A stretch of 64,000 nt of DNA from Myxococcota bacterium (GTDB taxonomy: Bacteria; Myxococcota_A; UBA9160; JAFDDA01). The DNA lies in assembly GCA_965228475.1 (NCBI GenBank), contig OZ245817.1, positions 2,560,001 through 2,624,000 on the forward strand, given 5' to 3'. The position numbers and the translations under genes were made by a program. The notes under the pieces are model-generated. The model saw only the letters and a program-made list of their open reading frames with translations, searched no databases and had not been told where the DNA came from. This document shows positions 45,579 through 56,528 of the stretch, piece after piece (position 1 is the stretch's first letter; every line of letters starts with the position of its first letter).

Positions 45579-46355
45579 ATGGCAGCGATGAGCGCGGCGG
45601 CGGCTCCGCAGCGCGAGGGCGTCCGGGTCGAGGCACGGGGGCTTTCGCGCCACTTCGGCGAGCACCGCGCGCTCGATGGCCTCGACCTCGCGATCGAGCC
45701 CGGCGAGACCTTCGGCCTGCTCGGCGCCAACGGGGCCGGCAAGACGACCTTCATCCGCCTCGTCACCGGCTACCTGCTGCCGACCGCCGGCGAGATCCTC
45801 GTCGACGGCTTTTCGCCTTCCACCCAGGCCCCGGAGGTGCACGCCCGGCTCGGCTTCGCGGCCGAGACCTCGCGCCTTTACCCGGAGCTCCGCGTGCGCC
45901 GCTTCCTCGCCTTCGCGGGCGAGATCCGGGGGCTCACCGGCGCGGCGCTCGAGGCGGCGATCGAGCGAGCGCTCGAGCGTTTCGAGCTCGGCTCCGTGGC
46001 GGGGCGCATCGTCGGGAACCTCTCGAAGGGCTACCAGCAGCGCGTGAGCCTGGCCCAGGCCTTCCTGCACGATCCGCCGCTGCTGATCGTCGACGAGCCG
46101 ACGAGCGGCCTCGATCCGCTCCACCAGGAGGCCGTGCGCGAGGTCATCCGCGAGGCCCACGGACGGCGCACCCTGCTCCTCTGCACCCACGATCTCGACG
46201 AGGCCCGGCGCCTGACCGACCGCGTGGCCGTCCTGCATCGCGGAAGCCTCGTCACCGCCGGGCCGACCGCCGAGGTGCTCGCCGGCGACGACCTCGCGCC
46301 GCTCTTCGACCCGACGGGCTCCGGCCACGAGCCGTCGGAGGCGGGCGCCCGATGA
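45579..46355 (+). CDS. ABC transporter ATP-binding protein (GldA-like)
   Basis: GANGAGKTT, LSKGYQQRV, LIVDEPTSGLD, CTH. Confidence 0.92.
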   Translation: MAAMSAAAAPQREGVRVEARGLSRHFGEHRALDGLDLAIEPGETFGLLGANGAGKTTFIRLVTGYLLPTAGEILVDGFSPSTQAPEVHARLGFAAETSRLYPELRVRRFLAFAGEIRGLTGAALEAAIERALERFELGSVAGRIVGNLSKGYQQRVSLAQAFLHDPPLLIVDEPTSGLDPLHQEAVREVIREAHGRRTLLLCTHDLDEARRLTDRVAVLHRGSLVTAGPTAEVLAGDDLAPLFDPTGSGHEPSEAGAR

Positions 46356-47140
46356 GGCCCTTCCTCGCCCTCTTCCGCAAGGAGCTCGCGGTCCTGTTCG
46401 GATCCCCCGTGGCCTACCTCACGCTGACCTTCGTCGGGCTGGTGACGGCGCTCCTCTTCTTCGACCACCTGCGCGTCTACAACCAGGTGCTCTTCGTCTA
46501 CAGCAGCAACGCCATGCGCGGCTTCGAAGCCGGCACCGTCCCGGACCACGTGAACCTGCGCGACCAGGTCTTCGTGCCGCTCATGGAGACCCTGGCCATC
46601 ACGTTGATCGCGCTGATCCCGCTGGTGACGATGCGCGTGTTCGCCGAGGAGCGCGCGCGCGGTACGGACGAGCTGCTCCTGGTGAGCCGCCTCACGCCGC
46701 GCGCCATCGTGCTCGCGAAGTTCCTGGCGACGTATCTCTTCATCGCGGTCCTGCTCGCGGTGAGCTTCGTCTACCCGGCGACGTCGGTGGTGCGCGCGGG
46801 CCTCGGGCTCGAACATCTGGCGGCGGTCTACCTGGGCCTGCTCGCCGTGGCCATCGGCATCAGCTCGATCGGCCTCGCGTGCTCGGCCTTCACGCAAAGC
46901 CAGCTCGTCGCGGCGATCTCCGCCTACGGCGTGGCCTTCGTCTTCTACGACTTCGGCTGGGCCCTGCCCTTCGTCGGTGAGACGCTCGGGGGCACGCTCG
47001 ACCGGCTTTCTTTCCACACGCGCTTCGCGTCGTTCTCCGAGGGTCTGGTCGTCCCGGCGGACCTGATCTTCTTCGCGGGCGTCTCGGCGCTGTGCATCGC
47101 GCTCTCGCGCATCTCCCTCGACCTGGTGCGGGTCCGCTAG
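46352..47140 (+). CDS. ABC-2 type permease (GldF-like)
   Basis: FRKEL..LFGSPVAY, PLVTMRVFAEERARGTDELL, AKF, SAFTQSQLVA. Confidence 0.88.
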   Translation: MRPFLALFRKELAVLFGSPVAYLTLTFVGLVTALLFFDHLRVYNQVLFVYSSNAMRGFEAGTVPDHVNLRDQVFVPLMETLAITLIALIPLVTMRVFAEERARGTDELLLVSRLTPRAIVLAKFLATYLFIAVLLAVSFVYPATSVVRAGLGLEHLAAVYLGLLAVAIGISSIGLACSAFTQSQLVAAISAYGVAFVFYDFGWALPFVGETLGGTLDRLSFHTRFASFSEGLVVPADLIFFAGVSALCIALSRISLDLVRVR

Positions 47141-48669
47141 TGCGCGAACTCGGCCTGGCAGGAGCGATCGCGATCGCCTTCACGCTCGTGTCCTACTACG
47201 CCACCCGTGGCCCGGCGGGCGGGGAGCTCGGCGGGTACGGCTGGGTGAACCTCGTCGGCGGCGGGGCAGCGCTCCTCGTGGCCGCCGGAATGGCCGTGCG
47301 GCGGGCCCGCGGCTTCGGAACCCCGGCGGCGCGCCGGATCCTCCTGCCGCACCTCGCCGCCACGGCGCTCCTGGTGACGGGCTTCGTCGTGGCCGAGGGC
47401 GCCGCCCGCAAGGCCGGCTGGCGCTTCGACTGGACGGCCGACGCCCGCTTCGAACTCGCCCCCGCGACCCTCGAGCTGTGCGCCCGCCTCGAACAGCCCG
47501 CTCGGGCGACCCACTTCGCCGAGCCCGGCGACCCGGACTCCCGCCGCACCCGTTTCCTGCTCGAGAGCTTCGTCGCGGCGGGCTGCTTCGACGTTCGCGA
47601 AAAGAACGCCGAGCAGTCCGAAGCGGAGCTCGACCTGTTCGGCGTGTCGACGCCCGACGCCGTCGTCCTCGAGGTCGGCGAGTACTACGACGTCGTCGAG
47701 CGCGCGAGCGAAGGGAGCCTGCTCGAGACGCTCCTGCGCCTCGAGAGCGACCCGACCCGCACCCTTTACGTCACGATCGGCGAGGGCGAGGGCGACTTCC
47801 GCGCCCCCGGGCCGGCCGGCTACTCGGGCCTGCGCGAGGCCCTCGGGAGCGAGGGCTACGTCCTGAAGAGCCTGGTGCTCGTCGCTGCGGGCGAAGTGCC
47901 CGAGGACGCGGACGGCGTGCTCGTGATCGCGCCGCGCCGGCCGCTCCACGCGAGCGCCCAGGACGCCTTGGAACGCTACGTCTCGCGCGGTGGACGGCTC
48001 GTCACGATGCTCGAACCGGGGATCGACACGGGCCTCGAACCGCTGCTCGAGCGGTTCGGCATCGACGCCGGGCCCGGCCTCGTCGTGGACTCCCGCTTCG
48101 CGGATCTCCAGGGGACCGCCCGGGGCACGGGCGTGCTCGTCTCGGACTACGCGGACCACCCCGTCGTCGAGGGCTTCGAAGGACGCCACATGAGCTTCTT
48201 CCCGAGCGTCCGCGCCGTCGTGCCGGCCCGCAAGCCGACGCCCGACGATCAGCTCGCCGCGATCCTCTACACGAGCCGCGAGGCGTTCCTCTCCGACAAC
48301 GTGGAGGCCGCCCGCCGCGGCATCGCCCCCACCCGCGGCGACGCGCGCCTCGAGCGCTTCCCGCTGGCGGCCTCGGGCCGCTACCCGCGCGAAGCCGGCG
48401 AAGGCCGCATCGTCGCCTTCGGGGACGCGGACTTCGCGAGCAACCGCTACGCCCGGGCCCTCTACAACCTCGACGTCGTCCTGAATGCCGTGCACTGGGC
48501 GCTCGAGCGCGAGCCCCAGATCACCCGGCGGCCCAAGGTGCTGACGCCCTACCAGACTCCGCTCCCGCCGCAGACCACCTTGCAGATGCTCTACGGCGTC
48601 GGCCTGCTCGTTCCGGAAGTGCTCTTGATCATCGGCGGGATCGTCTGGATCCGCCGGCGCTCGGGCTAG
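47140..48669 (+). CDS. GldG-like ABC transporter auxiliary/periplasmic component
   Basis: FDWTADARFELAPAT, GEGE, VPEDADGVLVIAPR, GGRL, RIVAFGDADF, NAVHW, C-terminal TM ending RRR. Confidence 0.8.
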   Translation: MRELGLAGAIAIAFTLVSYYATRGPAGGELGGYGWVNLVGGGAALLVAAGMAVRRARGFGTPAARRILLPHLAATALLVTGFVVAEGAARKAGWRFDWTADARFELAPATLELCARLEQPARATHFAEPGDPDSRRTRFLLESFVAAGCFDVREKNAEQSEAELDLFGVSTPDAVVLEVGEYYDVVERASEGSLLETLLRLESDPTRTLYVTIGEGEGDFRAPGPAGYSGLREALGSEGYVLKSLVLVAAGEVPEDADGVLVIAPRRPLHASAQDALERYVSRGGRLVTMLEPGIDTGLEPLLERFGIDAGPGLVVDSRFADLQGTARGTGVLVSDYADHPVVEGFEGRHMSFFPSVRAVVPARKPTPDDQLAAILYTSREAFLSDNVEAARRGIAPTRGDARLERFPLAASGRYPREAGEGRIVAFGDADFASNRYARALYNLDVVLNAVHWALEREPQITRRPKVLTPYQTPLPPQTTLQMLYGVGLLVPEVLLIIGGIVWIRRRSG

Positions 48670-48704
48670 GCCCGGCGCTCGCCCCGCGCGCGGCGCCCGC
48701 GGCG

Positions 48705-49133
48705 TCAGTTCCTCGGTTTCCTCGTCGCCAGGCCGATCCCCCGCGCGCCGGCCTGCTGAGCGACGTCGAGGATGTTCACGGCCTGGCCGAGCAGGACCTG
48801 CCGGTCCCCCTTCAGCACCACGAACTTCTCGCGCGATTCCTCGAGGGCGGCCGTCAGCACGGCCACGATGTTCGCGTCGCTCACGGTCTCGTCGTTCACC
48901 TGGACGACGCCGTCCTTGGTGACGGTGACCGTGACGCCCTGGGGCGAGGTGTCCGAGACGGCGGCCTCGGGCAGGTTCACGTTCTTGCCCTGGCTCTGGA
49001 TCGCCGAGGCCGTGACCATGAAGATGATCAGCAGCACGAGGAACACGTCCGTCAGCGGGGTGATGTTGATCTCGGCGACGATCGCGTCGCCGCCGTCCCC
49101 GCCGTCGCTGCTAGGCAGGCTGGAGATCGCCAT
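48705..49133 (-). CDS. ExbD/TolR family protein
   Basis: AEINITPLTDVFLVLLIIFMVT with the conserved TM Asp; VNLP; KGDR. Confidence 0.93.
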   Translation of the reverse strand: MAISSLPSSDGGDGGDAIVAEINITPLTDVFLVLLIIFMVTASAIQSQGKNVNLPEAAVSDTSPQGVTVTVTKDGVVQVNDETVSDANIVAVLTAALEESREKFVVLKGDRQVLLGQAVNILDVAQQAGARGIGLATRKPRN

Positions 49134-49818
49134 CCGGCACCTCCTGCGCACCGCTCGCCGGCGGCGAGGCCCCACCGCCCGACGCTTCCACGTAGAGCAG
49201 GGCCTGGACGAAGCGGTCGCTCGAGCGATGGAAGACGCCCGCGATGTCGCCCACGCGCACCTGGAGCCAGTTGAAGAAGGCCAGCGCGACGATGGCGACC
49301 AGCAGGCCGACGGCCGTGGCCACGAGCGCTTCGGAGATGCCCGCCGCGACGACCTCGAAGCCGCCCACGCCCTCGACGGCCATGTCCTGGAAGGCGCGCA
49401 GGATACCGATCACGGTGCCGAGCAGACCGATGAACGGCGCCAGCGAGCCGATCGTTCCGAGGATCCACAGGCCCCGCCGGAGCTCGTGCACCACTTCGGC
49501 CCGTGAGGTCGCGAGGATGCGGTCGAGGTCTTCGAGGGCGACGTTGCGCCAGCGCAGCGCCTCCTGGAAGACGTCGCTCATGGGGGTCTTCGTCGCCTGG
49601 CACGTCGCCAGCGCGGCGGAGAGGTCGCGCTGGGAGAGCGATTCCACGACCTTGCGGGTCAGGTCCCGGGTGCGCTTGGCGAGGCCGCGGTAGCGCCAGA
49701 GCCGCTCGAAGACGATCCCGAGGGCGATCACGGACATGATCCCGAGCGGGACGGTCGTGAGCGCGCCGATCCGCAGCAGTTCAAGAACGGTCAAGCGTTC
49801 GACACCGACGCCTTCCAC
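49111..49818 (-). CDS. MotA/TolQ/ExbB proton-channel family protein
   Basis: LGTIGSLAPFIGLLGTVIGI, GISEALVATAVGLLVAI; GTG after GGAGG. Confidence 0.92.
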   Translation of the reverse strand: MEGVGVERLTVLELLRIGALTTVPLGIMSVIALGIVFERLWRYRGLAKRTRDLTRKVVESLSQRDLSAALATCQATKTPMSDVFQEALRWRNVALEDLDRILATSRAEVVHELRRGLWILGTIGSLAPFIGLLGTVIGILRAFQDMAVEGVGGFEVVAAGISEALVATAVGLLVAIVALAFFNWLQVRVGDIAGVFHRSSDRFVQALLYVEASGGGASPPASGAQEVPDGDLQPA

Positions 49819-49834
49819 GAGCGCGTACCTCCAA

Positions 49835-49888
49835 CCTTCAGTCGGTTCTGAGCCTTCAGTCGGTTCCGGGCTTCGATCGGTTCCGACT
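49835..49888. repeat. About three copies of an 18-bp tandem repeat in the exbB leader
   Basis: CCTTCAGTCGGTTCTGAG / CCTTCAGTCGGTTCCGGG / (G)CTTCGATCGGTTCCGAC. Confidence 0.7.
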
Positions 49889-50155
49889 CTTTCGGCCGGC
49901 CCCGATTTCACTACGTGCCAAAGGTCACTTCGGCTACGCGGCCAGCGGAATCTACCGGACCGCTTGTGGGGCTGCACCGTCACCCGTGTTGCGTGCTTGC
50001 GTTGCACAGTTGCCGGTCGCTGCTGCGTTGACAGCGTGAGGGCCGAAGCCTACGATTTTTCGAGGGTTCGGGGGGTTTTCTCGAAGGGTGTTCGAACTCT
50101 TCGGGCGTTCCGAACGTCGCAAGGATGACGGCGCTGCCGTCGGCTAGCATCGGCC

Positions 50156-50201
50156 GACTCGCCTCGGCGAGCTCGTAGGACTCGCCGCGGCGAGCACGAA
50201 G
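50156..50201. repeat. Two tandem 23-bp palindromic units in the tonB leader
   Basis: GACTCGCCTCGGCGAGCTCGTAG / GACTCGCCGCGGCGAGCACGAAG (20/23 identical), each with CTCGCC-NN-GGCGAG. Confidence 0.75.
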
Positions 50202-50217
50202 GGAACTGACGTTCGGC

Positions 50218-51363
50218 ATGAAGGACGAAGCGTTCATCGTCCGTCGTAGACGGGCCCGTTCGACGCCGATGCGCTCACGCCGCATCGGCGCGGCCCTCGC
50301 TGCGGGCGGGGCCGGCGGCGGCAGCGGCGCCCCCGTCGAGTTCCCGGGCATCGACTTCGAAGACAAGGACCAGGCCGGCGGCCGCTGGGCCGGAATGGGC
50401 CTGGCCGCCCTGATCCACGGAGGGTTTCTCGCCTTCCTGATGGCCCTGGCGGCCCTGAACCCCGAGATCGCCGAAGAGATCATCGAGCTCCAGCTCATGA
50501 AGGAGCCGCCCGCCGCCAAGACCGACCCGGCGCCCGCCCGCCGCGTCGTCGCCGAGCGCCGCTCCGCGAACTTCGCGCCCCAGGCCCAGGCCCTGAAGGC
50601 CGACGTCGCGAACCCGAAGGTCGTGGCCCGCCGCTCGGCCATCGCCTCCAAGGCCTTCCAGGTCGACGCCGCCGGCGCGCGCGTCGCTCCCCGCCAGGTC
50701 ACCCGCGCGCGGGTCAACACCACGCGCGTGAACGCGATTGCCACCGTCGCCCAGCCGACCCGCACGGACCTGAACGTCGCCGACAGCGCGGCCCCGGCCC
50801 TGCGCTCGGCGAGCGTCACCGGGCCGACCGGCCCCTCGGTGGGCCCGCGCCAGATCGTCGCCAAGGGCGACTCGATCGGAACCGGGCCCTCCATGGTGAT
50901 CGGGCTCGGCGACACCTCCTCCGTACGCGACGGCATCGATTCCGACCGCGACGTGCTCGGCTCGAGCACGGGGCCGCGGCTCGCCAACGTCGACACCGCC
51001 ATCGGCCAGGGCCTCATGGACGGCAGCGGCGGCACGGGGCGCGGCGGCGTCGCCATGGGCGACTGCTATAAGCTGCCGGAGGTGCTCCAGTACCTCGAGT
51101 CGGTAAAGGTGAGAACGTTGGCTCGCTGGGTTCTCCCCCCGAACATCCCGGCCAACCAAGAGGTGGCCCTGCGCTTCAGGATTGACCCGGCAGGGACGGC
51201 CACGCGCGTCGACGTCGTCAGGACCGAGAACCAGGCGCTTGGCCAGAGCGCGGTAGACGCCCTCAAGAACGCTTCACCCTTCCCCGCCATGTCCGGCCGC
51301 GCGCGCTGCCTCTCGCGCGAACCCATCGTCGCGACGTTCCGCAACCCGAACGCCAGCGGATAG
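50218..51363 (+). CDS. TonB/TolA-like energy transducer
   Basis: TM with conserved His (AALIHGGF), long low-complexity linker, C-terminal YLESVK....RW..P...FRIDPAG....A..A...ASPFP. Confidence 0.8.
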   Translation: MKDEAFIVRRRRARSTPMRSRRIGAALAAGGAGGGSGAPVEFPGIDFEDKDQAGGRWAGMGLAALIHGGFLAFLMALAALNPEIAEEIIELQLMKEPPAAKTDPAPARRVVAERRSANFAPQAQALKADVANPKVVARRSAIASKAFQVDAAGARVAPRQVTRARVNTTRVNAIATVAQPTRTDLNVADSAAPALRSASVTGPTGPSVGPRQIVAKGDSIGTGPSMVIGLGDTSSVRDGIDSDRDVLGSSTGPRLANVDTAIGQGLMDGSGGTGRGGVAMGDCYKLPEVLQYLESVKVRTLARWVLPPNIPANQEVALRFRIDPAGTATRVDVVRTENQALGQSAVDALKNASPFPAMSGRARCLSREPIVATFRNPNASG

Positions 51364-51372
51364 ACTCCTCTC

Positions 51373-54300
51373 GTGATCGCCCGACGCTTCCTTGCCCCGT
51401 TGATCGTCCTGACCCTCGCCACCGGCAGCCCACCGGCAGCGGGCCGCTCGCCCGTCGTCCTCGAGTACGACGACGCCGAGCAGCTCAAGCTGAAGAAGGT
51501 CGATACCAACGGCGACGGCATGTACGACGAGCTCGTCCACTACCAGGACGGCAAGACGGTTCGGGCCGAGCGCGACGACGACCACGACGGCCGCATGGAC
51601 GTGACCATCCACTTCCGGGACGACGGCAAGACCCGGCTTCGCCAGGAGCGCGACACGAGCGGCAACGGCCGCATCGACCAGTGGGTCGACTTCGACGCCA
51701 ACGACCAGCCCGCCCTCCAGAAGACCGACCGCAACCAGGACGGCAAGCCCGATGCCACCATCACCTACCACCGCGGCCAGCCCGCCTCCGAAGAGCACGA
51801 TTCGAACTTCGACGGCAAGCCCGACCGCTTCGTCCGCTACGAGGGCGGAAAGCTCTCCTCGATCGACGAGGATCAGACCTACGACGGGAAGATCGACGTC
51901 CACGCGGTCTACGGCGCCGACGGCGAGAAGATCCGCGAGAAGCAGGACACCACGGGCGACGGCAACTTCGACGTCACCATCAACTACGAGAACGGGAAGA
52001 AGGTCCTGCTCTCCGAGGACGCCGACGCCAACGGCAAGCTCGAGCGCGTGACCTACTACCGCGACGAGGTCGTCACCAAGCGCGAGGCGGACACCACCGG
52101 GGACGGCCACTTCGACACCGTGGCCCTCTTCGAGGGCGGCACCGAGCGTTTCCAGTACCGCGACGAGGACGGCGACGGGCAGAACGAGTTCGTCATCACC
52201 TTCGCCGCCAACGGCGACCGGGAGCTCGAGGAGATCGACACCGACGGCGACGGGCGCCACGATGTCGTCCGCCGCTTCGAGAACGGCTTGAAGGCCCGCG
52301 AAGAGGAAGACCAGAACCACGACGGCAAGGTCGACCTGATCCGCGAGTTCCAGGGCGACCTGATCCTGAAGAGCCGGGCCGACGTGAACTTCGACGGCCG
52401 CATGGACACCTTCGTCGAGTACGCCGGCGGCGCCAAGCTCGAGCAGACCGAAGACCGCAACGGCGACCGCAAGCCCGACGCCCTCTACCGCTTCGACGAA
52501 AAGGGCCAGGTCGAGCTCGAGCAATTCGACGAGGACTTCGACGGCCACTACGAGATCGTGGCCGAGCGCAGCGGCGGGAAGATCGTGCGGCGCTCCGTCG
52601 ACGCCAAGAAGAAGGGCTCCCCCCAGCGCATCGAGCAGTTCGACGCGAACGAGCGGCTCGTGCAGGTCCAGCTCGACGAGAACGTCGACGGCCGCATCGA
52701 CGTGTGGAACTTCTATGGTGGGGGCAAGCGCCTCGTCCGCCAGGAGCAGGACCAGGACTTCGACGGGAACCCCGACGCCTGGATCGAGCTCGACCCGAAC
52801 ACCGGCAAGGAGACCGCCGTCCGCCGCGACACGGACGGCGACGGCAAACCCGACGTGTTTCGGCAGAACGACGTGAACGGCGTCGCCCAGAAGGTCGAGG
52901 AAGACCGCGACAAGGACGGCAAGGCGGACCGCTTCGTCTTCTACGAGGGCGGCCAGGCGGCCCGGTTCGAAGAGGACGACGACGGGGACGGCAAGCCCGA
53001 CGTCCGCGGCACGCTCGACGCCGACGGCAAGGTGGCCTTCGAGGAGCGCGAGCCCACGCGGGGCGGCGCCTTCAACCTTCGCGTCTTCTACGAAGGCGGC
53101 GAGAAGGTCAAGGAAGAGCGGGCCACCAAGGGCGATGGCAAGATCGACGTCGTCACCTTCTTTGCGGACGGCAAGCAGACCCGCCAGCAGCAGGACACGA
53201 CGGGCAAGGGTTCCTTCGACTCGACCATCGTCTTCGCCGACGGCAAGCAGGCCGAGCAGAGCCTCGACACCGACGGCGACGGCAAGCCCGACCAGGTCAC
53301 CCGCTTCGATTCGGACGGCCGCCCCGAGCGCGAGGAGATCGACCGCAACGGCGACGGCAAGCCCGACTTCGTGAAGTCCTACTCGCGCGGCAAGCTCGTC
53401 CGCGAAGAGGAAGACCGCGATCAGGACGGCGACTTCGACCTCGTCACCGAGTACGACGACGAGCTGCCGAAGCGCTCCGTCGAGGACGCCGACGGCGACG
53501 GCCGGCCCGAGATCGTGATCGACTACGAGAACGGGAAGAAAGCACGCCAGGAAGAAGACCCGGGCTCGGACGGACGCATCGACGTGGTCACCGTCTTCGA
53601 CGCGAACGAGCGGCCCGCCCGCATCGAAGTCGACGGCGACGAGGACGGACGCCGCGAAACCGTGCAGACCTTCACCGCCGGCCAGCTCGTGCGCGAAGAG
53701 AAGGACATGAACGGCGACGGGAAGCCGGACGTGATCTCGGAGTTCGAGAACGGCAAGCTCGCGCGCCAGGAGAAGGACGTCGACTTCGACGGCAAGCCCG
53801 ACCAGCGCGTCGTGGCCGGCGCCGACGGTGCCGCCGTGCAGGAGGCCGACTCCGATGGTGACGGCAAGATCGACACCTGGATCACCCTCGACGACCAGGG
53901 CCGCCCGAAACTCCGGCGCGAGGACCGCAACGGCGACGGCAAGCCCGAGCTCGTCGCGACCTTCAAGAACGGCGTGATCCAGCGCCTCGAGGAGGACGTG
54001 AACGGCGCGGGCTGCTTCACCCTGGTCCAGGACCACGACGCCGCCGGCGAGATCTCCTACGAGAAGCGGGACGCCAACGACGACTGCAAGTTCGACCTCT
54101 GGACCTGGCTCCAGAACGGCAAGATCCGCAAGCAGGCCGAGGACCCGCGCGGGACCGGCAAGGCCACCGTGCTCACCAAGTACGACGCCCAGCAGCGGCC
54201 CCAGCTCCAGGAGGTCGTGAGCGAGGGCAAGCGCCGGCCGGACAAGAAGCTCTTCCTACGCGCCAACGGCACCGTGCGCTCCCAGTGCGTGGACGGCGAC

Positions 54301-54636
54301 GGCAACGGCCGCCTCGACACGCGCATCCGCCTCGACGATGGCGGCAACGTCTCCGAAGTCGCCCTCGACACGGACGGCAACGGGGGCGTCGACCAGCAGG
54401 AGATCTACTCGGGCGGCATTCTCGTCCGCTTCGACGCGGACACCAACGCGGACGGCAAGGCCGACGTCGTCGAGCACCGCCAGGGCGACACCGTCACGCA
54501 CCAGGACCAGGACAGCGACTTCGACGGCGTGCTCGACTACCGCTTCGTCGGCGAGCAGGCGACCGAGATCAAGACGAAGGTCCCGGCCTTCGGGAGCCTC
54601 GGCTGCGGCAACTTCGATCCGTTCTGGCGGAGCTGA
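51373..54636 (+). CDS. Secreted protein of about 42 tandem 24-26-aa Dx[DN]xDGxxD beta-hairpin repeats
   Basis: Signal peptide, then repeats such as DTDGDGKPD-QVTRFDSDGRPEREEI and DRNGDGKPD-FVKSYSRGKLVREEE to the C-terminus; strong GC3 coding bias. Confidence 0.85.
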   Translation: MIARRFLAPLIVLTLATGSPPAAGRSPVVLEYDDAEQLKLKKVDTNGDGMYDELVHYQDGKTVRAERDDDHDGRMDVTIHFRDDGKTRLRQERDTSGNGRIDQWVDFDANDQPALQKTDRNQDGKPDATITYHRGQPASEEHDSNFDGKPDRFVRYEGGKLSSIDEDQTYDGKIDVHAVYGADGEKIREKQDTTGDGNFDVTINYENGKKVLLSEDADANGKLERVTYYRDEVVTKREADTTGDGHFDTVALFEGGTERFQYRDEDGDGQNEFVITFAANGDRELEEIDTDGDGRHDVVRRFENGLKAREEEDQNHDGKVDLIREFQGDLILKSRADVNFDGRMDTFVEYAGGAKLEQTEDRNGDRKPDALYRFDEKGQVELEQFDEDFDGHYEIVAERSGGKIVRRSVDAKKKGSPQRIEQFDANERLVQVQLDENVDGRIDVWNFYGGGKRLVRQEQDQDFDGNPDAWIELDPNTGKETAVRRDTDGDGKPDVFRQNDVNGVAQKVEEDRDKDGKADRFVFYEGGQAARFEEDDDGDGKPDVRGTLDADGKVAFEEREPTRGGAFNLRVFYEGGEKVKEERATKGDGKIDVVTFFADGKQTRQQQDTTGKGSFDSTIVFADGKQAEQSLDTDGDGKPDQVTRFDSDGRPEREEIDRNGDGKPDFVKSYSRGKLVREEEDRDQDGDFDLVTEYDDELPKRSVEDADGDGRPEIVIDYENGKKARQEEDPGSDGRIDVVTVFDANERPARIEVDGDEDGRRETVQTFTAGQLVREEKDMNGDGKPDVISEFENGKLARQEKDVDFDGKPDQRVVAGADGAAVQEADSDGDGKIDTWITLDDQGRPKLRREDRNGDGKPELVATFKNGVIQRLEEDVNGAGCFTLVQDHDAAGEISYEKRDANDDCKFDLWTWLQNGKIRKQAEDPRGTGKATVLTKYDAQQRPQLQEVVSEGKRRPDKKLFLRANGTVRSQCVDGDGNGRLDTRIRLDDGGNVSEVALDTDGNGGVDQQEIYSGGILVRFDADTNADGKADVVEHRQGDTVTHQDQDSDFDGVLDYRFVGEQATEIKTKVPAFGSLGCGNFDPFWRS

Positions 54637-54651
54637 CCGGCTCCCCAGCCC

Positions 54652-54969
54652 CTACGGACAGCTGTAGATCCCGTAGACCCGCTCGCCCGAGGCCACGTCT
54701 TCGAGGGGCGACACGGCGTTCCCGCCCATGTTCACCGCTTCCTGACGCGCCAGCCGTTCGAGCTCCTCTTCGACCTTGCTCCCGCGGCGCGGGATGAAGC
54801 CGACCTTGTCGAGCGTTCGGGTGTGGGTCTTCCCGAGGCGCTTACATCCGGCCACGTCGCCCGCCGCCCGGACGTTCACGGCTTCCGCGCGCGGCCCGAG
54901 GGCGACCCAGGTGCAACCCGTCGCCAAGAGACCGCCCAGAACGGCCGCGGAGATCGTTCGTCTGCTCAT
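54652..54969 (-). CDS. Small lipoprotein, DUF4156-like
   Basis: Lipobox LATGC-TWVAL; C..LG; LARQEAVNMGGNAV; ends YSCP; GGAGG RBS. Confidence 0.75.
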   Translation of the reverse strand: MSRRTISAAVLGGLLATGCTWVALGPRAEAVNVRAAGDVAGCKRLGKTHTRTLDKVGFIPRRGSKVEEELERLARQEAVNMGGNAVSPLEDVASGERVYGIYSCP

Positions 54970-55130
54970 GCCTTCGGATCCTCCTCCACGAATGGACGCC
55001 GCTGCCGGGCTCCGAGTTCTCGGAAGGGCGAAACGCCGGCCGGCCCCGGGCCAACCCGGGCGAGGTTCGCCCGTTTCGCCCGGCTTCGCCCACCCGGGCG
55101 TGCGCGGCGCCGACTCTGCCGCCCGCCGCG

Positions 55131-55146
55131 CGGCATGCCTCTTGCT
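55131..55146 (+). promoter_or_regulatory. Sigma-54 (-24/-12) promoter of the enhancer-binding protein gene
   Basis: CGGCATGCCTCTTGCT, GG-N10-GC spacing, 35 bp before the GTG with AGGAGG RBS. Confidence 0.7.
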
Positions 55147-55181
55147 CTCCCCCTGCACGGGACGGGGAACAGGAGGAAACC

Positions 55182-56528
55182 GTGAAGCTTCGTACGATTC
55201 TCTGGGTGGGTTCGGGGGACGGCCGCGGCGCGAGCGTCGTCAGCGATGCCGTGAGCCTCGACGTGGCCTGGGCGCGGGATGCGGAGGACGCCCTGGCCCT
55301 CCCCCTCGCCGCCTTCGAGGCGCTCGTGGTGGATGCCGGCTCGGCCCGCACGGCGCGCGCGACGATCGCGGCATTGCGCGAGGCGGAACCGAGCGCGGCC
55401 ATCCTCGTGCGGATCGACCCCGCCGAGCGCGCGGACGCGGCCCTGCTCGAGAGCGCGGGTGCCTCGCGCGTGATGCTGCGCCCGACCGAACACGCCCGGC
55501 CCGGCGCCGACGCCGAGGCGATCGTGCAGGAGCTCGACCGTCTCCCCCGCAGAAGCCCTTCCACCCCGCCGCCGGCGCGCGGGCTCGACGCCCTCGTCGG
55601 GAACAGCCGCGCACTGCAGGCCCTGCGAACCCTCGCGCGCCGCGCCGCGCGCTCCCAGGCCTCGATTCTCGTCTCGGGCGAGACGGGGACCGGCAAGGAG
55701 CTGCTCGCGCGTGCGATCCACGAAGAAAGCCCGCGCAGCAAGGGCCCCTTCATTGCGATCAACTGCGCCGCGTTCCCCGAGACCCTGCTCGAGAGCGAAC
55801 TCTTCGGCCACGCCAAGGGCGCCTTCACGGGCGCCGACCGGGAGCGCAAGGGCCTGTTCGCCGCAGCCGACCGCGGCACGCTCTTCCTCGACGAAGTCGG
55901 CGAGACCTCCGCCGGGCTCCAGGCGAAGCTCCTGCGGGCGCTGCAGGAGGGCGAGGTCCGGCCCGTAGGAGGAACGGCCGCGCGGCGGGTGGACGCGCGC
56001 ATCGTCGCCGCCACCAACCGCGACCTCGAAGAGGAGATCGAACGCGGCGGCTTCCGCGAAGACCTCTTCTACCGCCTCGCCGTCTTCCCGCTCCGCATGC
56101 CCTCGCTGCGGGAGCGCATCGACGACGTCGTCCCCCTGGCCGAACACTTCACCGCACGGCAGGCCGAGAAGCGTGGCGAACTCGTCTCTCGCTTGGCCCC
56201 GGCGGCAGAAGAGATCCTCCAGCTCCACGCCTGGCCGGGAAACGTCCGCGAGCTCCAGAACGAGATCGAACGCGCGCTCGCCCTGGCGGAGCCCGGCCAG
56301 CCGCTCCGCCCGGAACACTTCTCCGAACGGCTGGCCTCGGCCCGCGGCGCCCTCGGCAACGTCACGGGCCCCACCGGCACCCTGCGCGACGCCATGGACC
56401 GCGTCGAGGCCTGGTACCTCCGCCGCGCCCTCGCCGAAAACGCCGGCCGCCGCGCGGCCACGGCGCGCAAGCTCGGCATCACGCGCGAGGGGCTCTACAA
56501 GAAGATGAAGCGGCTGGGGGTCGAGTGA
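55182..56528 (+). CDS. Sigma-54-dependent enhancer-binding protein (AAA+, Fis-type HTH) with degenerate receiver-like N-terminus
   Basis: GETGTGKE, ESELFGH, GAFTGA, LFLDE, FREDLFYRL, WPGNVREL, ARKLGITREGLYKK. Confidence 0.95.
   Translation: MKLRTILWVGSGDGRGASVVSDAVSLDVAWARDAEDALALPLAAFEALVVDAGSARTARATIAALREAEPSAAILVRIDPAERADAALLESAGASRVMLRPTEHARPGADAEAIVQELDRLPRRSPSTPPPARGLDALVGNSRALQALRTLARRAARSQASILVSGETGTGKELLARAIHEESPRSKGPFIAINCAAFPETLLESELFGHAKGAFTGADRERKGLFAAADRGTLFLDEVGETSAGLQAKLLRALQEGEVRPVGGTAARRVDARIVAATNRDLEEEIERGGFREDLFYRLAVFPLRMPSLRERIDDVVPLAEHFTARQAEKRGELVSRLAPAAEEILQLHAWPGNVRELQNEIERALALAEPGQPLRPEHFSERLASARGALGNVTGPTGTLRDAMDRVEAWYLRRALAENAGRRAATARKLGITREGLYKKMKRLGVE

Follow-up and report, generated by a model that had tools for sequence, protein, structure and literature searches.

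A candidate Tol-Pal-like motor locus with a giant calcium-loop repeat protein in a Myxococcota genome

We analyzed a 64,000-nt stretch of the genome of a Myxococcota bacterium (assembly GCA_965228475.1, contig OZ245817.1, positions 2,560,001 to 2,624,000; hereafter the window), in which the genes of an ExbB/ExbD-type stator are divergent from a tonB-like gene and the gene of a giant secreted repeat protein, called REP here. On balance we read this locus as four parts of a Tol-Pal-like trans-envelope system driven by the proton motive force (PMF), with REP as a calcium-stiffened ribbon load; the system would be separate from the bacterium's own Tol-Pal system and from its receptor-coupled Ton systems. 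This reading is somewhat probable as a whole. That the genes are functionally associated is highly probable, and to the idea that REP is the direct mechanical load of the transducer we give slightly less than even credence. The four genes are located in the window as follows (position 1 is its first nucleotide).

48705..49133 (open reading frame, ORF, 48705-49175), minus strand: exbD, ExbD/TolR-like stator subunit, 142 aa from the likely ATG, Pfam ExbD
49111..~49824 (ORF 49111-50007), minus strand: exbB, ExbB/TolQ-like stator subunit, ~237 aa, Pfam MotA_ExbB
50218..51363, plus strand: tonB-like, TonB/TolA-like force transducer, 381 aa, Pfam TonB_C and TonB_2
51373..54636, plus strand: REP, secreted protein, 1087 aa, 43 Ca-loop β-hairpins

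The start of exbB at ~49824 was inferred by ortholog comparison. The exbD and exbB reading frames overlap by 23 nt, and 9 nt separate the TAG of the tonB-like gene (ending at 51363) from the GTG of REP (51373). Pfam and NCBIfam searches placed all elements where an initial annotation of this DNA had put them, with exbB-exbD divergent from the tonB-like gene and the same 9-bp gap before the repeat gene; the secreted 1087-aa protein of about 42 repeats that it had described resolved into 41 units plus two terminal hairpins, i.e. 43.

The gene order was conserved far beyond the source genome (5.0 Mb, one contig, 70% G+C). Full-length REP orthologs with 46-76% identity were found in 39 of 41 related genomes belonging to 12 families, and all 20 loci compared, from 12 families of the order, showed exbD-exbB on one strand followed by tonB-REP on the other. 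ExbD orthologs were present in every one of these loci and were 55-90% identical. The full gene order was also kept on the metagenome contig L036, with a REP of 35% identity, and likewise on L056; in L022 tonB and REP seem to overlap with the starts chosen. When 301 genomes of the phylum were sampled, using thresholds of E 1e-60 for REP and E 1e-12 for the TonB-like protein, REP was detected in 49 and the TonB-like protein in 51 of them. The matches were confined to the class of the window, with none in ~240 genomes of other classes, and coordinates showed the two genes to be neighbors throughout. The TonB-like protein occurred without REP in G259 (87% complete) and G160.

In one genus, g29, the system was absent: both REP and the TonB-like protein were missing from all six genomes. 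The best ExbB matches in five g29 genomes were 39-44% identical, and at the one locus inspected (G038) this match was the TolQ of a tolQ-tolA-tolB-TPR cluster. Upstream of the motor block of the window lies aroA, and at the aroA site of g29 genes for Hsp20, transaldolase, PGI and RpiA replaced the block, with a σ54 activator gene still adjacent. TonB-dependent receptor matches were retained in g29, 5-11 in each genome.

Comparative genomics showed that two more genes, unlinked to the motor in the source genome, belong to this putative system.

genome 4095238-4096560: repeat lipoprotein, with LATGC lipobox, Gly-rich hydrophobic segment, coiled coil and 8 repeats
genome 4117157-4118377: protein with a vWA (von Willebrand factor A) domain, signal peptide or lipobox by inspection

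Three lipoproteins of the source genome contain the REP-type repeat, none of them encoded beside a motor gene. The repeat lipoprotein listed above was found in the same 39 of 41 relatives as REP and in 51 of the 301 phylum genomes, with the same tallies per family as the TonB-like gene; it was absent from g29 (0/6, and 0/5 in a separate search). The vWA protein occurred in the same 39 of 41 relatives and in neither of the two g29 genomes of the sample, a count that is less specific because paralogous vWA genes exist. In 32 of the 39 genomes the best vWA match lay within ~1 kb of the lipoprotein gene, and in the source genome the two are 21 kb apart. No Pfam domain was detected in the repeat lipoprotein at E 0.001 or better. 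The other two of the three lipoproteins (genome 2313286-2314767 and 1479473-1481275, both on the minus strand) end in 5-7 of these Ca-loop hairpins, one of them containing a long Pro/Ala-rich linker, the second TPR repeats; ORFs like these occur in most relatives.

Linked arrangements of all six genes were found in two other lineages. In three genera of a sister order (f13; L070-L072) vWA-exbB-exbD is convergent with tonB-REP-lipoprotein, the lipoprotein gene directly following REP and the vWA gene being the first before exbB-exbD. Genes for a patatin and a TANGO2-like protein flank both the f13 cluster and the lone lipoprotein gene of the source genome, and these common flanks suggest that a compact ancestral cluster split up later. 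In Binatia, a class of a second phylum, 4 of 81 sampled genomes (L035 and three more) carry a one-strand operon in the order REP-like (~14 repeats)-lipoprotein-tonB-exbB-exbD, followed by a convergent vWA gene; in L035, a metagenome-assembled genome of Candidatus Binatia, the contig end cuts off the first gene. The Binatia lipoprotein has the same build as the repeat lipoprotein of the source genome. When Binatia ExbB, ExbD and TonB were compared with the source genome, the window genes were the best matches (E 8e-47, 9e-31 and 1.5e-11, respectively), with TolQ (2e-19) and TolR (6e-10) well behind. Two minor features of the Binatia loci were a small secreted protein (~235-255 aa, ...LVLKNGRxITVQSYREEG) encoded after the vWA gene in all three of L053-L055, and the shikimate-pathway gene aroB (aroQ in L035) nearby, like aroA in the window, which is probably coincidence.

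The source genome contains both of the classical systems elsewhere. Its TolB is encoded ~0.39 Mb from the window beside TolQ and TolR and scored 327.7 bits against a cut-off of 343.15; the initial annotation had noted that neither tolB nor pal was nearby, which held for tolB, a Pal gene not having been searched for as such. In the Binatia, all four carriers of the operon have a TolB above cut-off elsewhere in the genome. As the annotation had also said, no receptor is close: the window contains no PF00593 match, and the nearest of the six in the genome lies ~33 kb before the window start. Gene-by-gene comparison with the window queries recovered no receptor in the 20 loci, the Binatia operons or the f13 clusters. 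Two receptors of the source genome have no adjacent TonB gene, and both were tested; neither tracks the distribution of REP. Besides the tonB-like gene product there are five other TonB_C proteins, of which three are encoded next to receptors; an exbB-exbB-exbD-exbD cluster is present separately. The region at genome 1860237-1867984 encodes two ExbB-type, two ExbD-type and two TonB_C proteins together with a protein of 1198 aa that matches a receptor barrel, and is probably a conventional Ton energizer with an Oar-like large receptor.

By sequence scores the motor is nearer to TolQ/TolR than to ExbB/ExbD. ExbB matched Pfam MotA_ExbB (PF01618) at E 1.5e-30 and obtained 118.4 bits with NCBIfam tolQ (cut-off 221) versus 76.5 with exbB; ExbD matched Pfam ExbD (PF02472) at E 4.4e-24 and obtained 89.9 bits with tolR (cut-off 127.3) versus 65.3 with ExbD_1, all four NCBIfam scores being below cut-off. 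The membrane-helix Asp of ExbD is found, by inspection, in ...TPLTDVF.... A quick maximum-likelihood tree was computed for 29 rows of the ExbB family. In it, the 21 rows linked to REP split from the 8 others with a support of 53, and the TolQ proteins of the source genome and of g29 formed a separate group with E. coli TolQ and ExbB (support 97), the locus ExbB falling outside this TolQ clade.

The TonB-like protein is the weakest TonB_C match among the proteins of the source genome (TonB_C E 1e-5, TonB_2 E 1.6e-5, residues 291-366). Its structural model comprises a membrane helix at residues 53-79 (predicted local distance difference test, pLDDT, ~90), a disordered part (80-278) and then a C-domain spanning 280-375 (pLDDT ~92) in the order alpha-beta-beta-alpha-beta. 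The top fold match of this C-domain was TolAIII (6s3w; E 9e-5, root-mean-square deviation, rmsd, 2.3 Å over 91 columns), followed by the TolA domain III entries 1lr0 and 2x9a_B (TMt 0.83), and TonB (6sly) ranked after these; judged by its best match, the modelled domain is closest to TolA domain III. His67, Cys283 and Cys364 are invariant in 21 sequences, and the linker of ~200 residues is conserved in sequence and overall not proline-rich. When REP 24-264, the N-terminal quarter of the protein, was modelled together with the C-domain 270-381, the complex scored 0.00, an outcome that speaks neither for nor against a contact.

With motor and transducer both nearer to Tol, the Ton label of the initial annotation needs correction. 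Its neighborhood proposal was sound: the repeat gene is tied to tonB/exbBD in 20 of 20 loci, in three arrangements and by shared presence and loss, and the transducer does not look like an ordinary receptor-coupled TonB, being the weakest TonB_C match, having its own phyletic pattern and being absent from g29, which keeps its receptors. Because the linkage extends far beyond the source genome and the TonB is not of the receptor-coupled type, the connection of the repeat gene with the motor stands.

REP has a signal peptide by inspection, and AxA-type cleavage sites are found in the orthologs. The mature protein has 1063 aa, 119 kDa, a pI of 4.5 and a net charge of -100, with 15.4% Asp and 11.1% Gly. 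It is built of 41 loop-plus-hairpin units, 24 (24 units), 25 (15) or 26 (2) residues long, plus an N-terminal and a C-terminal hairpin. The consensus of 446 aligned 24-mers reads D1-T-[N/D]-G-D5-G6-[R/K]-[P/F]-D9-V-V-T-x-[Y/F]14-E-[G/N]-G17-K-P-V-R21-Q-E23-E, in which residues 1, 3, 5, 6 and 9 make up the DxDxDGxxD loop that forms the calcium site in integrin FG-GAP hairpins and in EF-hands. The strict pattern D-x-[DN]-x-[DN]-G-x-x-[DE] was counted 28 times, a looser one 32 times, in line with the Ca2+-loop motif recognized initially. Identity autocorrelation of REP peaked, far beyond chance, at offsets 24, 49, 73 and 97 (0.23, 0.20, 0.22 and 0.24; mean 0.08), and the maximum at offset 97 therefore points to a four-hairpin super-repeat. 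This super-repeat of 97 residues can be written as 24+25+24+24 on an underlying 24-residue period, and the turn of the 25-residue units is longer, [F/L]-D-x-x-G-x-P. Tandem Repeats Finder detected no array of 72-75-nt period in the REP gene.

We aligned the window protein with 18 of the 20 fetched orthologs, omitting L023 and L032 for their uncertain starts. The alignment had 1116 columns for 1087 residues and was almost free of indels, the length was 1080-1093 aa in 17 of the 20 orthologs, and conservation per repeat was even (0.56-0.75). This constant length and even conservation indicate that each hairpin has its own orthologous identity and that the hairpin number is fixed, which, on the sequences, is the signature of a defined architecture and not of a freely expanding repeat.

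An AlphaFold2 model of REP from a 19-sequence alignment had a pLDDT of 87.8 and a predicted template-modelling score (pTM) of 0.37. DSSP assigned 86 strands, with two-residue tight turns along one edge and nine-residue loops along the other; the ~80-strand acidic β-sheet envisaged in the initial annotation thus agrees with the ~86 antiparallel strands of the model and the pI of 4.5. The best Foldseek matches were Rhs cores, teneurin YD shells and the BC components of Tc toxins, at E values down to 1e-22, and the Rhs matches had a TM score of ~0.10 and an rmsd of ~57 Å. With VIA-align, the hairpin domain of SdgB gave Z 9.5 (105 residues), TarM entries Z 8.4-9.2 (~100 residues), and OspA and engineered OspA single-layer sheets Z 6-8 over up to 315 residues. 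From these outcomes we read the model, whose overall curvature is uncertain, as an open meander ribbon and not as a cocoon or a series of propellers; REP is accordingly modelled as one long single-layer antiparallel sheet. A closed Rhs-like cage was considered and is not supported by the global fit. The likeness to RHS/YD repeats that had been noted initially is therefore local only, and globally the model looks more like an open sheet as in OspA than like a shell. Four Cys are conserved in the C-terminal fifth of REP, with C972 and C1078 invariant, and some families have an extra Cys pair at the N-terminus; conserved Cys suit an oxidizing compartment.

Domain searches covered little of REP. 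DUF6802 (PF20615) scored 38.3 bits (gathering cut-off 27) over residues 604-669, about 3 of the 43 hairpins, FG-GAP_3 21.5 bits, under its cut-off of 26.9, and the NCBIfam Lsa25.6 adhesin family 81.2 bits, under its cut-off of 150. The MORN-type likeness suggested earlier was not recovered, REP having no MORN_2 (PF07661) match at E 0.01 or better; the Binatia relative scored 22.4 bits with MORN_2, under the cut-off of 29.6. Pfam gave no RHS_repeat, plug, protease or toxin domain, and neither Pfam nor NCBIfam a TolB/PD40 match. Lanmodulin and an EF-hand relative of it were the only solved structures that the REP profile matched by sequence (E 0.002, REP residues 750-836); REP and lanmodulin have in common loops at ~24-residue spacing. 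Some database relatives are labelled YwqK, and atlas relatives have EF-hand Pfam matches. At E 1e-30 or better the REP family comprised 215 library proteins, and at E 0.001 or better 9967 proteins of the representative library, a number inflated by true FG-GAP propeller giants.

Stator scores, C-domain fold and f13 gene order make Tol-Pal the closest analogy, in which REP would stand in the place of TolB and the repeat lipoprotein in that of Pal. Like Tol-Pal, the system has a TolQ/TolR-type stator and a transducer composed of a membrane helix with His, a long linker and a TolAIII-like C-domain; the gene of a periplasmic protein directly follows that of the transducer, and the f13 order tonB-REP-lipoprotein parallels tolA-tolB-pal. 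Unlike in Tol-Pal, the stator lies under the TolQ/TolR equivalog cut-offs and outside the TolQ clade, the partner is a 43-hairpin Ca-loop ribbon instead of the TolB propeller, a peptidoglycan-binding domain of OmpA/Pal type is missing from the lipoprotein, and a vWA protein belongs to the set; moreover, the same genomes carry a separate TolB with tolQ and tolR.

In the mechanism that we propose, the stator would use the PMF to move the transducer, whose C-domain would engage REP or the lipoprotein by strand addition, perhaps at a conserved strand of the mature N-terminus of REP. TolA adds a strand with the N-terminus of TolB, and TonB does so with TonB boxes. About 30 bound Ca2+ ions would stiffen REP, and its sheet might pair with the repeat domain of the lipoprotein through like repeats. 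The motor would then load, move or release a rigid periplasmic tie between the membranes, and its output would serve to space, tether or remodel the envelope and not to import nutrients. At the textbook strand spacing of ~4.8 Å, the ribbon would be ~40 nm long if all 86 strands were fully extended, which is our own estimate and not a measurement on the model. A fuller version, a six-gene Tol-Pal-paralogous machine (vWA, TolQ-like, TolR-like, TolA-like, REP, lipoprotein) whose transducer pulls a Ca-stiffened ribbon mated to the lipoprotein, is tentative and, taken whole, rather unlikely; if true, the two membranes would be joined by a mechanical tie-rod or spring, a kind of load not described for any 5:2 motor.

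The PMF-driven machine with a Ca-loop sheet as its partner that was proposed initially is thus largely right in kind, and the physical partnership, as bridge, cage or scaffold, is something we can only infer. Its member list was correct for the four core genes and missed the repeat lipoprotein and the vWA protein, which are unlinked here. Tol-Pal and Ton are the two textbook routes by which energy of the inner membrane reaches the outer membrane in diderms. A third conserved system, with the same stator and transducer and a different partner set, would widen the known loads of such motors, and REP would offer a natural fixed-length single-layer β-sheet of ~86 strands as a structural and mechanical object. 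In addition, a function would follow for a large uncharacterized repeat family that is partly covered by DUF6802.

With Ton systems the locus has in common the stator families and, by Pfam, the TonB family of the C-domain; it differs in that no receptor is linked in any arrangement and that the receptors of g29 outlast the loss of the system. The Vibrio TonB2 system with TtpB/C/D, as outlined in PMC6957404, has the idea of extra proteins on a Ton-type motor in common, whereas Pfam matched REP to none of the Ttp families. Force transducers of vWA type adjoining TolQR-like motors were proposed by Williams-Jones et al. 2025 (PMC12204202), and there as here the gene of a vWA protein is linked with a stator of TolQ/TolR type. 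In that proposal, however, as far as the main text describes it, the vWA domain takes the place of the C-domain of TolA/TonB and is joined directly to a membrane helix, while here the transducer is separate; the main text of that paper contains neither 'calcium' nor 'hairpin', its 'repeat' passages concern proline and TPR repeats, and no repeat partner like REP turned up in it. At genome positions 1703246-1704481, 1706725-1707072 and also 1731451-1731786, two MotA/ExbB-family genes without adjacent ExbD were seen, one of them ~2 kb from a vWA paralog; they recall the pairs of vWA plus TolQ only that are proposed in PMC12204202.

For REP itself, OspA, TarM/SdgB and RHS/YD proteins are alike as β-hairpin meanders, but none of them has a Ca loop per hairpin or comes near 86 strands. 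FG-GAP/integrin, MORN_2 (YwqK), DUF6802 and Lsa25.6 proteins have the DxDxDGxxD loop with an aromatic-x-x-G turn; FG-GAP differs in its blade of ~60 residues, versus a unit of 24-25 residues and a super-repeat of 97 residues in REP. The Agl-Glt machinery comprises an AglR/AglQ/AglS stator and GltA-K, and the locus described here has one ExbD-type gene. Literature searches, including those for DUF6802, returned no paper describing this gene set.

Among other explanations, the one that survives best, and that we regard as improbable, is that REP is an accessory of ordinary Ton uptake, like TtpB, TtpC and TtpD of Vibrio TonB2, and serves one or more distant receptors. The Ton/Tol type of stator and transducer, the precedent of Ton systems with essential extra proteins (PMC6957404) and the two source-genome receptors without an adjacent TonB gene are compatible with such a role. 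Those two orphan receptors, however, do not follow the distribution of REP, no receptor appeared in the window or, with the window queries, in the 20 loci or the Binatia and f13 clusters, and g29 lost the set while retaining its 5-11 receptor matches per genome. The motor parts also point elsewhere, with a stator nearer to TolQ/TolR, a C-domain that matches TolAIII first and a gene order resembling tolA-tolB-pal.

Still less probable is that REP is mainly a metal-binding protein, be it a Ca2+ buffer or store or an adhesin or matrix protein, with the motor serving export or an unrelated task. A simple buffer would need neither a fixed length of 43 hairpins nor position-specific conservation of its repeats, REP is strictly co-distributed with the TonB-like gene, the lipoprotein and the vWA protein, and none of the three arrangements encodes an outer-membrane channel. 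These points are set against the 28-32 DxDxDG-type sites, the net charge of -100 and the 15.4% Asp of REP, against lanmodulin and an EF-hand protein as its matches among solved structures and the EF-hand Pfam matches of its relatives, and against a TonB-dependent transporter of Myxococcus that is reportedly needed for protease secretion. That the genes have no functional link and are neighbors merely through the conserved gene order of a lineage, as the likewise conserved aroA and ABC transporter genes beside the block and the relatedness of the compared genomes might suggest, is very improbable, as the same set is kept together in three arrangements in three lineages, the unlinked members have exactly the same phyletic pattern, and tonB and REP are 9 nt apart, with an apparent overlap in L022.

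Several points weigh against the Tol-Pal-like system that we favor. The joint loss in g29 is one evolutionary event, and related genomes are not independent samples; moreover, gene order is generally conserved in the order, as the synteny of aroA and the ABC genes shows. In the tree, a single clade of REP-linked stators has weak support, and two of the six source-genome receptors were tested for co-distribution. The repeat lipoprotein has no OmpA/Pal domain, and a Gly-zipper identity proposed for it was dropped (Pfam Gly-zipper_YMGG E 0.34, not significant). The global geometry of REP is uncertain at a pTM of 0.37, confidence being limited to the local hairpins. Its N-terminal strand is modelled within the sheet and is pinned by Cys in some families, which fits awkwardly with a 'box' that is to be pulled out. 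Sequencing runs listed for this genome included no RNA set, and those with a small share of it carry marine labels, which are no evidence of habitat. Finally, binding by REP, its location and its calcium binding are predictions from sequence and models.

The features surrounding the four genes are listed below.

50028..50056, plus strand: σ70-like promoter (TTGACA-17-TACGAT), located upstream of the tonB-like gene, a consensus match only
54652..54969, minus strand: DUF4156 lipoprotein, Pfam E 2.9e-9, LATGC lipobox, convergent with REP
55182-56528: σ54 activator, after the DUF4156 gene
45609..48669, plus strand: GldA/GldF/GldG-like ABC transporter (ATPase, ABC-2 permease, auxiliary protein), assigned by NCBIfam and Pfam

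Between exbB and the tonB-like gene lies a divergent spacer of 393 nt (49825-50217), ~300-1000 nt long in the orthologs, in which no site for a regulator was recognized. The σ70-like match at 50028-50056 was the sole one in 48500-55300, where shuffled sequences gave an expectation of 0.2, and an Rfam scan of 48600-55300 yielded no match at E 0.1 or better. The DUF4156 lipoprotein, which converges on REP as initially described, was recovered in one of the 20 loci, that of the same genus (56% identity). It was accordingly regarded as a genus-level addition and rejected as a member of the system. The σ54 activator was rejected as a dedicated regulator, as its distance varies and it is kept at the site in a g29 genome that has no block. 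In ORF listings, the genes 3' of REP differed between families and none was conserved.

Whether the ABC transporter is part of the motor system is uncertain. Its genes scored 186 bits with NCBIfam GldA (cut-off 402.6) and 94.3 bits with GldF (cut-off 288.5), and the auxiliary protein matched Pfam ABC_transp_aux at E 2.4e-19. They were found beside exbD in 17 of the 20 loci, were not adjacent in two (L027, L030) and could not be assessed in one. At the aroA site of g29 they are gone along with the four core genes, and they are missing from the Binatia operons and the f13 clusters. A second GldA/F/G-like set is present at genome 3025664-3027989, ~23 kb from Tol-Pal.

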